Shown piece after piece: positions 12,401-64,000 of a DNA stretch of 64,000 bases. The stretch covers positions 247,070,001 through 247,134,000 of the forward strand of contig OZ024742.1 of assembly GCA_964016885.1 (NCBI GenBank), written 5' to 3'. The notes beneath the pieces are model-generated. The model saw nothing but the letters and a program-made list of their open reading frames with translations, had not been told where the DNA came from and searched no databases. Numbering within the stretch: the stretch's first letter is position 1; each line of letters opens with the position of its first letter. A program made the translations under genes and the position numbers. The DNA comes from Eledone cirrhosa. Taxonomy: Eukaryota.

Positions 12401-14364
12401 TTGCGATATTGGTGCTTGTGGTGGTGGTGTTGAAGGTGTTGTTGTTGTTGGCGGTGGGGTTGCCGCCGGTGGTGATGGTGGTGCCAGTGTGGGTAGTGAT
12501 GGTTGTGGTGGTGTTGCTGCTGTAAGTCTCTTTGCAGTAGCCTTTACCATTTTTTCATTTCTTCCCTCCCTTTTCGAAGGCGTCGATGCGCTGCTTCTGC
12601 GTTTGTGCCTTCTTGCGACCTTTTGCCATCCCTCTCCCACGTCACACTCCATGTCCAATTCTGTGAGGTCGGGCAGGGGTACCAGCTCCACTCTTTCACT
12701 TGTTCTTGTTGGTAATGGTTGCAGTGGAGTCTCTGTTGCAGCTGCCTTTGGTATTACTGTTGTTGTTGTTAATATTTCCACTGCTGCTGCTGTTTTTGAT
12801 TTCCGTGGCGTGGGCATAGGTGCCACGGATCTATTCTTCCTCCTTGCCGCCTGGCCTGTTGCTGGTAGCAGTGGAGCCAGTTTCGAAAGGAGGGGGGTTT
12901 TCTCCTTTCTCAGGGTCTTGTAATTGCAGAAGGCTCTGAGGTGAGTCTTCGACCCACAGCGAAAGCCATTCGGGCGTTTACCCTCAACACTTATGGGCAG
13001 TTGAGTGCCGTTATCGAAGTCTATCACATCCGGGATAGCTTCAATGCACTCTTGGTTGGTTTGAATTAACATCTCAATGGAGGTGCCTACCCAATCTTCT
13101 CGTACTTTTTTCTGTACTTGCAGTACAGTTGTTTTGTCCTCGATTCCGACAAGGACAGACGCGGCCAGCCAAGAAAGGGTAATCCCGGGTGGCGGGGGAC
13201 GGGGGACGACAATGTGGGTCAGTTTGACCCTCACAATTTTTTGCCCGCAGTAGGAGGGCACCAATACCATTTCCTCGCTCCTTAGGGTCACTAAGGATTG
13301 AGCCTTTGCCTCGTGGGGTGTGGTAAAAAGCACGTCCACGGTGGCATATTTCTTGCCTCGGGTGATATGCAGTTTTCCGCTGCCACACAGACCCTAAGGC
13401 TTTTTGTATTTGAGCCTCTGTGGCTCTTTCAACCCTACATCATTTTGTGCTTACTGTACAGTACGTGACCGTACATTGCTGTTGGGTTTCGAAACATTTT
13501 TCGGCTGCCTTGCAGATTGCTCGGTGTCCGATTTTCGTCACCATCTTCTTTGCTTCCTGTAATTCCTCATTTGTTATAAGGATGGTTTCCAGGTTCTTTG
13601 CGATACCTGCAAACGAGATTGGTTTTTCTTTCTTGTTGTTGTTGTTGTCGTCAGCGCTGCTGTTACTTTTGTTGTTGCTGCTGGTACTACGACCGCCGCC
13701 GCCGCTGTTGCTGTGATTGTTGTTGTTGCTGCCGTTGCTGTTGTTGTTGCTGTTGCTGTTGCTGCTGCTGCTGTTGTTGTTTATGCTGCTGCTGATGTTG
13801 TTGCGGCTGCTACTAGTGTTTTCCTTGTCACTGTTGCTGCTGCTGTTATTACGGCTGCTGCTGCTATTCTTCATGACGTCAGACGAATGAAATGGCTTTC
13901 CGTATTTACCGCACACATTTTTCGTCGTTGTCGTCGTCGTGGAGAAATGTTTCACGGAATGCACGTTCTGTTGGTGAAAGCTACCAGAAACTATATTTTT
14001 CTTTTTCTTTAATGGCGTCGCTTGCGAAAGAGGCGACACCACCTGTAGAGAAGGGAGGGAGAGAAACAATATTCTCTCTGATGTAGTGACGATTGAGGAA
14101 GAAGACGGAATGAGTGGGAGTGACTTGTGAAAATTATTTTTTGTAGCCATGTTTTTTACGGTTTAAAATGAATATTGGGCACAAAACCCCAATAAGCGGT
14201 TATTTAACCCCGAAGGGCCAATTAACGGGCAGAAAGACCCTTCTCACGAGGAGGAGGGTGTTTTTATCTACAATTTGGTTCAAGTTTTAAACAATTTACA
14301 ATTGTTATAGCGGTTAAAAATTACTATACCTTACAGAGCCGAGCCTCTGTCAAACATGGTATTC
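9354..14364 (-). mobile_element. Rearranged, decayed Tx1 copy (type-A 5'UTR/ORF1) with intact 5' end
   Basis: 5' end gaataccatg... follows (ATT)12 on the minus strand. ORF1 14150-~11996 is broken; ORF2 from 11956 is frameshifted. Internal deletions at ~10940 and ~9530, a 100-bp inverted insert at ~10783-10882, and a fold-back in place of the 3' end. Confidence 0.92.
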
Positions 14365-14400
14365 AATAATAATAATAATAATAATAATAATAATAATAAT
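14365..14400. repeat. (AAT)12 tract between Tx1 5' end and Dong-like fragment
   Basis: Directly visible. Confidence 0.97.
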
Positions 14401-60529: not shown

Positions 60530-61570
60530 GAATGAATATATATGTCCTCATGTGTCTATGTGTGTCTTCATGTATGTATAAGTGTGAATGATTGTGTCAG
60601 TGTATATGAATGCAACTATACATGTGTGTATATAAGTGTGCATGTATGTATATGTATGGGCGTATGTATGTATGTGTATGTATGTGTGCATGTATGTATA
60701 TATGTATGGGTGTATGTACATATGTGTATGTATGTGTGCATGTATGTATATGTATGGGTGTATGTACGTATGTGTATGTATGTGTGCATGTATGTATGTG
60801 TATGGGTTTAGACAATAGACAAGATTTGTTTCACCAACAAACATCTATTAACAAAATAAGAAAAAAAAGTCATATCCAGATGCGTTTGCGTGTGTAGATA
60901 CATACATATAGATAGTTACATTTATATATATATATACATGCATATCTATCTATCTACCTATCTATATATGTATAATATATGTATGTATGTATGTATGTAT
61001 GTATGTATGTATGTATGTATGTATGTATGTATGTATGTATGTATGTATGTATGTATATATGTATATATATATATATATATATATATATGTATCAATATAT
61101 ATATATATATATGTATGTATCAATATATATATATATATATATATATATATATATATATATATATATATATATATATATATATATGTATCAATATATATAT
61201 ATATATATATATATATATATATATATATATATATATATGTGTGTGTGTGTGTGTGTGTATGTGTGTGTGTGTGTGTGTGTGTGTGCGCGTGTATATGTGT
61301 TTTGATAAATATGTATATATGTATACTATACTACATTAATATTTCTAAGTTGTGCAAAGACCGACAGCACTTTTCATTATATATACAAAAATATTATAAA
61401 CAACAGCTGCAACTGACATCTCAAACACACACACATACACACACACGCATACACACACACACACACGCACACACATACACACAAGTACACCATCGTTATT
61501 TTTATTATTATTATTGTTATTATTATTATTATTATTATTATTATTATTAATATTATTATTATTATTATTA
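60530..61570. repeat. TATG-based minisatellite (~46-50 bp units) plus (TATG)n, (TA)n, (TG)n, (CA)n and (TTA)n microsatellites
   Basis: Recurrent gtgtgcatgtatgtata..tgtatggg unit four times in 60636-60806; simple tracts downstream. Confidence 0.85.
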
Positions 61571-64000
61571 CAGTTGCATTTATCTTTCTTTATGTTCATA
61601 CGAGTTATCACCAAGTCACAACCAGTGACCTCAAGAGAGAACAAGGTCCACCATGTTCAAGAAAGAACATACATACACACACATGCATCTTTAGGTGTTT
61701 AGACTTGTGATGTACTTATATTGACAGAATCTTCCTTAGTGTATGGGCAGTTCCCATTAGTACTATCTATTGTTTGTCTCCTATTCTCCCGGGTTTCCTG
61801 AGATTTGCGATAAGTAATCATTAGACCCCTTAGGTATCATTCCTAGAGCGCCTACAACCACTGGTATTGTTTTAGTTCTCAATTTCCACATTTTTCCAAT
61901 TTCTATCTCCAGGTCCTTATACTTGCTCAATTTTTCAAATGTTTTTATAGATACATTCTTGTCTATTGGAACCGGCATATCAATTAGGAGGCATACCCTC
62001 TTTTTAAAGTCCTTCAGTATTATATCAGGTTTATTTGGATCTATTTTTCGGTCTGTTTGGATGCTAAAGTTCCACAAGATTGAGATGTGATCTTTTTCAA
62101 GTATGGGAGGTGGTTGATGCTCCCACCAATTCTTTTGATGGGGCAGGTCAAAATGCTTACACATTATCCAATGTATGTATTGTGCAGCTCTGTCATGCCT
62201 GTTTAGGTATTCGGTTGGAGTTATAGGACTGCACATTGAAATTATATGGTCAATGGTCTCTGGTTGTTTTTTGCATACACGGCATAATGGGCTGCATCCA
62301 TTTTTTATTATGTTGGCTTGGTAATTTTTTGTTGGCAGACACTGATCTTATGCTGATATAATCAGTCCTTCAGTCTCCGATTTCAGTCCAGAGGATGCCA
62401 ACCACCGATGGGTTAAAGTTTTGTCAACATCAGGATTGTTAGCTCGTTCTGGGTATTTTCCATACAGAGGCTTTTCTTGCCATTTCTTAGCCAGTTTCTG
62501 TAGCAGTTCTTTCTTTGCAGTTACTTTTACCTGCTTTTCTTTTTCTGTGTTTTCCATTTCAGCAGTAAATGGGACTTCTGAAATTTGTAGTCCATTACTG
62601 TATCTTTGTGCATCTTTTGTAATGGAATTTGATCTTTTGATGCTTTCGTGTTTCAAAACGAGTTTGATCATCCAATCATGTGATTCCCTTAGATATGTAG
62701 ATAATCCAATTGTTGCAGTTTTCAACGCAATGTCTAACTGGATTAACCCACGTCCTCCTTCTTTTCTAGGGAGATATATTCTATCTATATCTGCTTTAGG
62801 GTGATGCATTCTGTGCATGGTTAAGAATTTTCGAATTTTTGTATCGAGCGTACGGATCTCTGTGCTTGACCAGTTGATGACATTGTAACTGTAGGTTACT
62901 ACTGGTATGGCAAGCGTGTTTATGGCATCGATCCTATTCCTTGCATTCAATTCCGTTATTAAGATTGCTCTTACTCTGCTGTAACATTCCTTCCTTATCC
63001 TTTCCCTCATTGTCGAGTGCTTGAATCCGTCTCCTTCACAAACACCTAGATATTTGTAAGTATTTTCTTGATCAAGTTCTCTTATCACGTTCCCCCGATC
63101 AAGATTAATGTCTGAACGTTTCAGCAGCTTTCCTCTGGTGAACGTTGCTTTGGCGCATTTATCTAGTCCAAACTCCATTTTAATGTCATCACTGAACTGC
63201 TTCACAGTGGATAATAGCCCTTGCAATTGTTCATCATTTTTTGCAAATAGTTTCAGGTCATCCATGTAGAACAAGTGATTAATAGTTTTGTCATAATCTT
63301 TATATCCATGTTTTGTTTTATTGAGCATTTTACTTAATGGTATAAGTGCGATGCAGAATAAAAACGGTGATAAAGAGTCATCCTGAAAAATTCCAAAATT
63401 AATATTAACTTCTCCAGCTTCCAGTGATTTTGTTTCACTATTCAAAAGGAGTGTCGTTTTCCATGTCTTCATACTGAATGACAAAAACCTCCTGACAACG
63501 GGGGATATTTTGAAAATCTCTAAACATTTTTCAATCCAACTGTGTGGCAAACTATAGAATGCTTTTTTATAATCTATCCAAGCAATTGATAGATTTTTGT
63601 GTCTATTATGACAATCTTCCAGTATCATTTTGTTAACCAAAAGCTGATCCTTACAGCCATATGAGCCTCGTTTACACCCTTTCTGCTCAATGGGAAATAG
63701 GTCATTTGTTATCAGGTGGTCATATGTGTATTCAGTTAGGACTGATGTTAAAATTTTATACATTGCGGTCAAGCAAGTTATCGGTATGTCATTTTTGGGA
63801 TTGTTTGTCTCATCATTCTTCGGAAGCAGGAATGTAATGCCGTTAACTAGCCATGATGGTATCTTTTCTGGCTCCTTATCTATTTCATTGTAAAGTTGGG
63901 CTAACAGCTCATGAGACTCTGTGAAGGCATTTATCCAAAAATTTTGTATTTTGTCTTTTCCTGGGGATTTCCATTTGCTGGTTTTTCTTAGAGCCAAGCG
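61571..64000 (-). mobile_element. Second R4/Dong-like family element (RT + CCHC + RLE), decayed, runs off the window end
   Basis: WKSPGKD, PITCL, EQKGC, WIDYKKAF, GIFQDDSLSP, LFYMDDLKL, YKYLG, GGRGL; CRVC..ETIDHIISMC; KPDIILKD..LLID. 3' end followed by (TAA)n on its own strand. Confidence 0.92.

Follow-up and report, generated by a model that had tools for sequence, protein, structure and literature searches.

A Tx1-like element and two Dong-like families in opposite orientation in the AAT repeats of an octopod

How do retrotransposons of two nuclease types come to lie in one and the same microsatellite, each reading in its own fixed direction? The question is raised by a stretch of 64,000 nucleotides of the Eledone cirrhosa genome (the window; contig OZ024742.1, 247,070,001 to 247,134,000), in which a minus-strand Tx1-like 5' end, an AAT array and a plus-strand, 5'-truncated Dong-like element were twice predicted in succession (at 14365-14400 and 59003-59092). 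Both instances are present, and the coordinates of the original prediction were correct throughout (Table 1). Within the window the Tx1 sense strand reads ATT at every Tx1 end that touches an array, all three Dong-like elements read TAA, and the tail that a Dong-like and a CR1-like element had been said to share is indeed a run joining both 3' ends. No tRNA gene was found in the 64 kb.

Table 1. Repeat features of the window, with positions counted from its first letter
Feature	Position	Strand	Details
Tx1-like 3' part	9269-10940		rearranged; belongs to the copy at 10941..14364
Tx1-like element, 5' variant A, older copy	10941..14364	-	5' 3.4 kb; 89% to array units
(AAT)12 array	14365..14400		head-to-head between Tx1 and Dong
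Dong-like element, family A, 5'-truncated	14401..15083	+	87% to 59205-59897
Three repeat units (9-base run)	15084..15092		common to Dong 3' end and antisense CR1 3' end
CR1-like element, 5'-truncated	15094..16000	-	5' flank without array
SINE copy	18030..18205	+	absent from related duplicate of same stretch, 20800-20955
RTE-like 3' fragment	21250..21571	+	ends about a dozen bases before family's end
(AAT)12 array	21572..21607		between RTE fragment and antisense Tx1 3' end; best read as Tx1 3' repeat
Tx1 3' fragment	21608..22462	-	90% to units
Tx1 copy, 5'-truncated	22461..24544	+	inverted 5' piece 22461-23160; then (ATT)10 at 24545-24574
Tx1 variant A unit 1, full-length	24575..30605	+	ORF1 24788, 699 aa; ORF2 26923, 1139 aa
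Tx1 units 2-5, head-to-tail	30648..54913	+	spacers (ATT)14-17
ATT array, SINE 3' piece (54971-55029), (ATT)4	54914..55041	+	
Tx1 variant B 5' end	55042..55372	+	79% to 58673-59002
Tx1 variant B	55364..59002	-	ORF2 as variant A (96%); 5' UTR and ORF1 different; 3' half absent
About 30 AAT units	59003..59092		head-to-head between Tx1 B and Dong
Dong-like element, family A, 5'-truncated	59093..59891	+	CCHC knuckle, PD..D..K nuclease motif
(AAT)24 then (AAG)9	59892..59990	+	
Imperfect array	61504..61569		3' repeat of Dong family B
Dong-like element, family B	61570..64000	-	RT then nuclease region; continues past window end; reads TAA

The elements and their likely classes

The two ORFs of the Tx1-like element encode 699 and 1139 aa. 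The second carries the Pfam domains Exo_endo_phos, RVT_1 and zf-RVT, an APE-RT-zinc finger layout with APE at about residues 1-235, and its best solved-structure match is human L1 ORF2 (E 4e-52 over 850 residues, against E 1e-21 for R2); the first has one CCHC knuckle (CX2CX4HX4C, at residue 374), and the 3' ends run into ATT. A gag-like CCHC knuckle in ORF1 and the absence of a poly(A) tail are features of the Tx1 clade. By its predicted proteins the element belongs to the L1 group (L1/Tx1) of non-LTR retrotransposons, with the Tx1-clade name provisional; the named relative closest to it is a protein of Argonauta hians (74%), and no named Tx1 or Dong reference was among the matches from protein searches, cluster look-up and Atlas. 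Three different 5' halves (variants A, B and C) occur, and for two of them a common ORF2 was shown. A recurring flank considered as a carrier repeat turned out to be Dong 5' UTR, and a second such flank was the third Tx1 5' variant.

The Dong-like element has a single ORF of 1141 aa, without APE, in which RT, CCHC and a PD..D..K nuclease are recognised. Its best solved-structure match is R2, to which the nuclease stretch aligns weakly (E 0.06), and among 120 listed relatives Pfam finds RT only, apart from zf-RVT. Judged from these motifs it is an RLE-type non-LTR retrotransposon, the R4-clade name being provisional; we take the Dong-like families to be R4/Dong from their motifs and the target, 15094..16000 to be CR1-like from its RT C-terminus and tail, and the fragment at 21250..21571 presumably to be RTE-like. 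A strict descriptor of our own found no HDV-like ribozyme in the one Dong 5' end examined.

The tandem Tx1 copies of the window are not five independent observations, because four of them were amplified locally: units 2-5 differ among themselves by 2-5 bases, both ORFs are open in units 2-4 and ORF1 is split in unit 5. Five separate insertions were therefore rejected for this array. Neighbouring copies in three other arrays show 42-68 base differences and belong to a mixture of variants A, B and C.

Polarity and repeat flanks across the genome

Random orientation, the outcome that would have spoken against a common target, was not seen genome-wide. With starts located by sequence patterns, (ATT)3 stands directly upstream in about 1603 of 1646 Tx1 variant-A copies and in the opposite sense in 1, in agreement with the polarity predicted from the window; of 200,000 blind points, 0.31% have three units of a chosen strand no more than 30 bases away. 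Among the starts listed, a non-random set from the beginning of contig C1, 100 of 100 variant-B starts end in ATT (of 2250), and at least two TAA-sense units precede 90 of 100 full-length Dong starts (of 838), ATT preceding none; 7 of these 100 Dong copies start in AAG runs. At 228 distinct arrays, all in loci selected because they contain a motif of Tx1 or Dong, Tx1 is ATT-sense in 177 cases against 1, Dong TAA-sense in 162 against 0, and the SINE 38 against 1. The exceptions to polarity are L048, L206, L274 and L042 and, in the blind sample, three SINE rows, one Tx1 row and one Dong row. An element is counted as target-specific when more than 20% of its flanks are of one type (PMC4494074), a share that the flanks of the Tx1-like element exceed, with repeat 5' and 3' and in fixed orientation.

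Because repeats are enriched on the 5' side too, they represent targets and not 3' tails alone. A TAA-sense array, never one in the ATT sense, is found at 26 of 37 other Dong 5' junctions (13 of 50 loci having been dropped for unresolved 5' ends) and is absent at 11, against a background of 0.31%; truncated Tx1 copies have an array at 10 of 22. Several of the junctions without a 5' array (12 of 22 truncated Tx1, 11 of 37 Dong) are direct Tx1-Dong fusions or contain unresolved UTR. Tx1 and Dong thus share one repeat in fixed, opposite orientation with repeats on both sides, as predicted. Since any target-specific element should show fixed polarity, the opposite direction itself is one of two outcomes and no surprise.

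The other families serve as a contrast. CR1 has ATT tails, yet none of its 17 resolved 5' junctions adjoins an array (8 of 25 loci with unresolved 5' ends were dropped), so a tail alone does not put an element into arrays. CR1 tails are newly made and then colonised, by the SINE in 4 of 25 and by full-length Tx1 in two; one CR1 fragment follows a Tx1 array (L257). Copies of Tx1 or the SINE that landed outside arrays have just 0-2 repeat units of their own, and hence their apparent tails are mostly target. The idea that tails seed targets for other elements consequently holds for CR1 tails but not for those of Tx1 or the SINE, and the remark that the SINE ends in ATT is right for the (ATT)4 that follows 54971-55029, although the SINE itself makes almost no tail. 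In two cases where Tx1 seems to lie inside a short SINE tail, the SINE more plausibly arrived second (clearly at L258, likely at L259). The run at 21572-21607, thought to be the AAT tail of the RTE fragment with a Tx1 tail inside it, was rejected as an RTE tail, because relatives of the window RTE end in GAA runs at five of seven other loci with a readable end.

The SINE is very abundant (52 3' ends in 800 kb). ATTAT follows 42 of the 52 ends, and a duplication of 10-20 bases is seen in 23, of which 17 start with ATTAT; the truncated Tx1 at L132 has a 16-base duplication with the same start, the only clear Tx1 one. The 26 bases at the very end of the SINE are similar to three Tx1 ends (shuffle p 0.002 or less) but to no CR1, Dong or RTE end, so that the SINE is probably moved by the Tx1 protein. 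A central domain common to the members is the criterion for MetaSINE, CORE-SINE and octopus OR1/OR2/OK (PMC4824008). The five-base site that most SINE copies use, together with the 8 of 69 Tx1 3' ends that have only 1-2 repeat units, indicates that the nuclease by itself is not array-specific.

Site choice and the proposed routes of 5' attachment and stack growth

Fixed polarity, repeats on both sides, two nuclease types and mixed stacks are observed. That the Tx1-like element and both Dong-like families reach the same (AAT)n in opposite orientation through unrelated nucleases nicking opposite strands is likely, and we have good confidence that opposite-strand nicking acts jointly with array splitting and target duplication. 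The nick of the Tx1 APE domain would fall on the AAT strand, immediately 3' of ATAAT, and that of the Dong RLE domain on the ATT strand, each nick priming reverse transcription, and each insertion would split one array in two and duplicate some 10-20 bases. Targets would thereby multiply on the spot, allowing stacks to grow without attraction between families. The chief sources of new arrays would be CR1 tails, slippage and probably also Dong tails, rather than Tx1 or SINE tails; the SINE would borrow the Tx1 protein. The predicted excess of Tx1-Dong adjacency is seen when Tx1 3' ends adjoining antisense Dong (24 of 69) are set against blind arrays (4 of 50), but is not significant against long arrays only (1 of 12, p 0.09). 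Comparison of the ages of neighbouring Tx1 and Dong gave p 0.13 (rho 0.44, p 0.09).

Full-length Tx1 copies differ from truncated ones at the 5' end. All 25 full-length copies have at least six units upstream, compared with 8-10 of the 22 truncated ones (p ~1e-5), 12 of which lack a 5' array; five of 27 truncated rows were dropped (L040, L145, L151 and L164 are not true 5' junctions, and L058 duplicates L057), as was L157, where the motif lies away from the expected place. Of 200 listed Tx1 starts, one is directly preceded by a triplet that is out of register, compared with 22 of 100 listed Dong starts, a kind of contrast tied to target sequence left on the RNA of R2 (PMC3774820). An array that always accompanies full-length Tx1 and is often missing from truncated copies suggests a repeat leader on the RNA. 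Tentatively, full-length Tx1 RNA may start within the upstream repeat, its leader pairing with the target and joining the 5' end in register. No Tx1 5' ribozyme was found by Rfam at gathering level or by our descriptor, and no transcript start was found. More speculative still is the wider picture of an APE-type LINE attaching its 5' end R2-style via a target-derived (AUU)n leader, whose full-length copies need and regenerate the repeat and which, with an opposite-strand RLE element and a Tx1-driven SINE, would form self-multiplying stacks shaping a large share of octopod AAT arrays.

Other explanations must be weighed against opposite-strand nicking. The RNA rather than the nuclease might pick the site: a loose L1-type nuclease would nick T-A steps widely, only nicks pairing with the 3' repeat of the RNA (and the 5' leader) would be used, and polarity would be inherited from that repeat. 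The five-base sites of the SINE and of some truncated Tx1 copies, the greater strictness of full-length Tx1 and the reported pairing of SART1 RNA with its nicked target (PMC7265360) are in keeping with such a scheme. It is nonetheless unlikely, as CR1, with the longest self-made ATT tails, has no 5' junction in an array, Tx1 brings 0-2 units of its own, and in TRAS1/SART1 a swap of nuclease swaps the target (PMC7265360).

Nor need the repeats have been targets at all. Were they 3' tails only, each 5' array would be the tail of an upstream neighbour, and 19 of 50 blind arrays do adjoin a 3' end of these families, while many Tx1 starts come after another Tx1 or SINE end. No tail, however, accounts for the 31 arrays lying head-to-head between Tx1 and Dong 5' ends or for the 12 Tx1 5' ends that have an array but no known neighbour beyond it; this reading is refuted and retains next to no credence. 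Passive pile-up, in which broad insertion is followed by survival in permissive chromosome blocks and by local duplication of arrays together with their neighbours, is very improbable. It would suit the local amplification of units 2-5 and the partly complementary megabase blocks of Tx1/Dong stacks and CR1 on C1 (rho -0.29, p 0.049), but not the mixed variants and divergence within the three other arrays, nor the lack of a significant correlation between Tx1 and distant Dong copies (rho 0.19, p 0.20). It is refuted as the main cause by the roughly 97% of 1646 copies whose junctions are exact to the base and fixed in strand.

Known systems and implications

TAA repeats are an established Dong target (PMC3812793), and in Octopus vulgaris Dong-R4 elements are numerous and have been active recently (PMC13282606). 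Bombyx Dong, DongAg and snail DongBg resemble the element described here in target, single ORF, RT, CCHC and PD..D..K motifs; here, two diverged families occupy arrays alongside an APE element, and some copies start in AAG runs. Bombyx Dong carries a 5' ribozyme (PMC3774820), whereas our descriptor found none in the single Dong 5' end from this genome. APE-type Tx1-clade elements also occupy microsatellites elsewhere, namely Kibi in (TC)n, Koshi in (TTC)n and crocodilian Tx1 in (TTCC)n/(TTTC)n (PMC4494074); the present case differs in its (ATT)n target, octopod host, three 5' halves and thousands of copies. ATT is absent from the Tx1 targets in the running text of that paper, and no (ATT)n target for a Tx1-like element was found in the literature searched. 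Targeting of AAT repeats is thus already known for Dong and, as far as that literature goes, new for a Tx1-like element.

TRAS1 and SART1 of Bombyx are both APE-type elements of the R1 clade. Like the pair described here they insert into one repeat in opposite directions, TRAS1 nicking a T-A step (PMC7265360); theirs are telomeric repeats, in contrast to an APE and RLE pair in a dispersed microsatellite. Keno, of APE type, and Utopia, of RLE type, evolved one target in parallel in U2 snRNA genes, with the same site and the same 3' flank (PMC4640811), whereas here opposite strands of a simple repeat are used in one genome, in mixed stacks. The uniform 5' junctions of R2 have been explained by pairing of a target-derived leader, upstream 28S sequence kept on the RNA (PMC3774820); R2 is RLE-type and its ribozyme makes the leader, while here a leader is suggested for an APE element in which no ribozyme was found. 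Crocodilian SINEU-3, moved by Tx1-Mar, shares its target preference (PMC4494074); the present SINE is tied to arrays far less closely than the element that probably drives it.

These observations add a microsatellite target for L1-group elements and point to the element that likely mobilises a SINE of very high abundance. They also counsel caution with AAT markers in such genomes, which are often flanked by repeats. More broadly, they provide a case with thousands of copies in which two nuclease classes appear to use opposite strands of one dispersed repeat, and one with built-in controls for the old question of what determines the insertion site, the nuclease or the ends of the RNA: a LINE in full-length and truncated form, a SINE that probably depends on it, an RLE element on the opposite strand, and CR1, which has the same tail without the targeting.

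Elements at the AAT arrays

The window covers C3:247070001-247134000 of an animal genome of 3.0 Gb, and every repeat run and neighbouring element first described in it was found in its place. At the window centre is a row of five Tx1 elements, each with an ORF2 of 1139 aa that carries APE, RT and a zinc finger, and four of the five also keep an open ORF1. Human L1 ORF2 is the top match of Tx1 ORF2 among solved structures, and an Argonauta hians protein is the closest named relative (74% over the RT), which makes an octopod host likely. The Tx1 5' halves are of three kinds (A, B and C), with A and B on the same ORF2, joined at about base 2265, a switch that resembles the 5' end swapping known in mammalian L1. 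Dong-like elements form two families in this genome, and a full family-A copy has a single 1141-aa ORF with RT, CCHC and PD..D..K motifs and lacks an APE. We use "Tx1" and "R4/Dong" as putative clade labels, consistent with this anatomy, placement being by anatomy.

Features in the window and at comparison loci (L numbers) from the rest of the genome
Feature	Location	Observation
Tx1 row	24575-54913	five 6.03-kb units, head-to-tail, (ATT)14-17 between them
Tx1 units 2-5	30648-54913	2-5 bases apart from one another
Tx1 5' variant A	24575-26840	5' UTRs of A, B and C unrelated, ORF1s diverged; G directly after ATT at every start
Tx1 5' variant B	56873-59002	as for A
Tx1 5' variant C	L064:1-1294	as for A
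Inverted and fused Tx1 pieces	9269-10940, 21608-23160, 55042-59002	include a variant-B copy that folds back on itself, head outward; one inverted 5' piece presumably of twin-priming type
Tx1-like fragment	7100-9270	more distant, 72% to tandem units
Degraded APE-type LINE	1050-4900	minus strand; presumably RTE
Old local duplication	18206-18355 / 20800-20955	SINE beside one copy, none beside the other
65-base unit of RTE 3' region	L042:1813-2860	about twelve tandem copies
Dong B and Tx1 B, head-to-head	L273:323-7274	another pair, just right of window
AAG runs	59964-59990; L007, L009, L051, L053, L142	AAG arrays often beside AAT arrays; both families also in contact with AAG
Truncated Tx1 fused straight to Dong	L078, L082, L161, L166, L170, L185	no repeat between; deletion across the stack, or loss of target on insertion
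CR1 versus Tx1/Dong stacks	C1:1-47.4 Mb	partly complementary megabase blocks (rho -0.29, p 0.049)

Polarity and target

The original prediction gave Tx1 and Dong opposite, fixed polarity on one repeat, and this is upheld genome-wide. The array survey took 150 loci, each selected because it holds a Tx1 motif or a Dong motif, with 228 distinct arrays. At these arrays the ATT sense was seen 177 times for Tx1 and 38 times for the SINE, with one opposite case each, and Dong had the TAA sense in all 162 cases. Exact 3' motifs number 6375 for Tx1, 9458 for Dong A and 7151 for CR1 in the genome. The 23-base start of Tx1 variant A occurs 1646 times (the pattern requires a non-C base twelve places upstream), and genome-wide patterns find (ATT)3 immediately before it in 1603 cases and the opposite sense in 1; the ratio 1603/1646, about 97%, is approximate, the two patterns disagreeing at the base twelve places upstream. 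Among the matches listed, all located in the initial part of contig C1, the flank ends in ATT at 100 of 100 variant-B starts (of 2250), with four perfect units in 92, and 100 full-length Dong starts (of 838), counted by eye, show at least two TAA-sense units in 90, an AAG-type run in 7 and ATT in none.

Were these repeats mere 3' tails, the 5' side should lack them, and it does not. Of 50 Dong 5' junctions, 37 could be resolved, and at least three TAA units adjoin 26 of these; at blind points the figure is 0.31%. All 25 full-length Tx1 copies have at least six ATT units upstream; among truncated copies (22 once five rows were dropped; the scripted count before that was 7/27) the array is directly 5' in 8 and within 20 bases in 10. 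Another 5' end stands at either side of 31 arrays, Tx1 on one flank and Dong on the other, head-to-head, and 3' tails cannot account for these arrays. In the control family CR1, ATT runs follow most of 25 3' ends, and none of the 17 5' junctions that could be resolved has an array. A strict rule is contradicted by a CR1 fragment that follows a Tx1 array at L257, and apparently by two CR1-CR1 rows in the array survey. The association of Tx1 and Dong with AAT arrays is real, genome-wide and target-driven.

Neighbours, tails and rows

Beyond 69 Tx1 3' ends, selected by their own motif, lay an antisense Dong in 24 cases, a co-oriented Tx1 in 14, a co-oriented SINE in 7, another antisense element in 2 and nothing known in 22; a co-oriented Dong lay beyond 0 of 69. 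The predicted enrichment of Tx1-Dong adjacency stands against all blind arrays (p 8e-4; 50 arrays of at least four units from 80 stretches of 10 kb, a Dong 3' end at 4) but falls short of significance when the comparison is with the 12 long arrays that lack a Tx1 end (p 0.09). A common preference for long arrays and common chromosome blocks may suffice, and the adjacency counts give no sign of attraction or competition between the two.

That the tails of one element seed targets for others holds for CR1, mostly not for Tx1 or the SINE, and not in the RTE example. CR1 tails are newly made arrays used as insertion sites, with a SINE inside 4 of 25 and a full-length Tx1 B inside two (L256 and L257, found via coordinate lists); yet none of 100 CR1 ends among those listed had the 3' motif of Tx1 or of Dong A within 250 bases. 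The Dong at window 14401 is most simply read as having entered a CR1 tail, because the far end of the adjoining CR1 lacks an array. Tx1 ends outside arrays (8 of 69) carry one or two repeat units, ATTAT comes next at 42 of 52 SINE 3' ends, and 17 of 23 SINE target duplications of 10-20 bases begin with ATTAT, some of the 23 being possible chance matches inside arrays. Such few units and such duplication starts argue that the ATT ends of Tx1 and SINE are mostly target. At L258 a SINE in the array before a Tx1 has a 17-base duplication extending into the Tx1, so the Tx1 came first. The reading of 21572-21607 as the AAT tail of an RTE fragment, occupied by a Tx1 tail, fails: GAA runs close the relatives of this RTE at 5 of the 7 loci whose end could be read, and the copy in the window breaks off before the GAA-bearing end of its family.

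Units 2-5 of the window row are 2-5 bases apart mutually. They differ by 29-32 bases from unit 1, and none of 19 other full-length copies is closer to them than 26; the most similar pair among those 19 is 28 apart, and neighbours in three other rows differ by 42-68. So small a spread, against far larger distances elsewhere, points to a recent amplification in place, to gene conversion or to an error of assembly. Unit 1 differs by 9 bases from L169, a copy on C1. Tx1 rows are a general arrangement, not peculiar to the window: of 100 starts among the matches listed, 33 have a neighbour on the same strand no more than 7.5 kb away, and none an opposite-strand one.

Mechanism and precedent

Under the standard model of target-primed reverse transcription, the first nick lies where the duplication starts. 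Tx1 and the SINE would make it on the AAT strand, 3' of ATAAT, and Dong on the ATT strand; array splitting and target duplication on insertion would then yield more arrays at the same place. The SINE 3' end is similar to Tx1 ends and not to those of other families, and Tx1 is thus, from this likeness, the likely driver of the SINE. A duplication that extends beyond the array is very rare at full-length Tx1 starts, in contrast to the SINE and the truncated Tx1 copy L132, and the last triplet before the start is off-register in 1 of 200 Tx1 and 22 of 100 Dong starts (by eye, among those listed). In the portions consulted of PMC3774820, uniform R2 5' junctions are tied to target sequence remaining on the RNA, and a supplement legend has Dong RNA losing upstream TAA repeats through self-cleavage. 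Tx1 RNA may carry a repeat leader, from read-through or a start inside the array; alternatively, the pattern could reflect a second nick that requires the repeat, or a greater age of the truncated copies. Neither Rfam, at its gathering level, nor a strict descriptor found a ribozyme at the Tx1 5' end, and the descriptor found none on one Dong 5' end.

Every ingredient of the Tx1/Dong/SINE system has precedent. In the excerpts consulted, Dong targets TAA, a snail family included (PMC3812793), Kibi targets TC and Koshi TTC (PMC3812793; PMC4494074), TRAS1 and SART1 use one repeat in opposite directions (PMC7265360), as Tx1 and Dong do here, and Keno (APE) and Utopia (RLE) have a common target (PMC4640811), the same pairing of nucleases on one target. 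Excerpts on octopus report Dong-R4 and L1-Tx1 as abundant and contain no target analysis (PMC13282606, PMC8967140); that of PMC4824008 names no Tx1 partner. An (ATT)n-specific Tx1 was not found in the literature searched, and Repbase, Kojima and Fujiwara 2004, figures and supplements, outside that literature, may hold one. What appears to be new is the ATT target, the pairing of an APE and an RLE element on opposite strands of a dispersed repeat, the likely link to the SINE and the clue to a leader.
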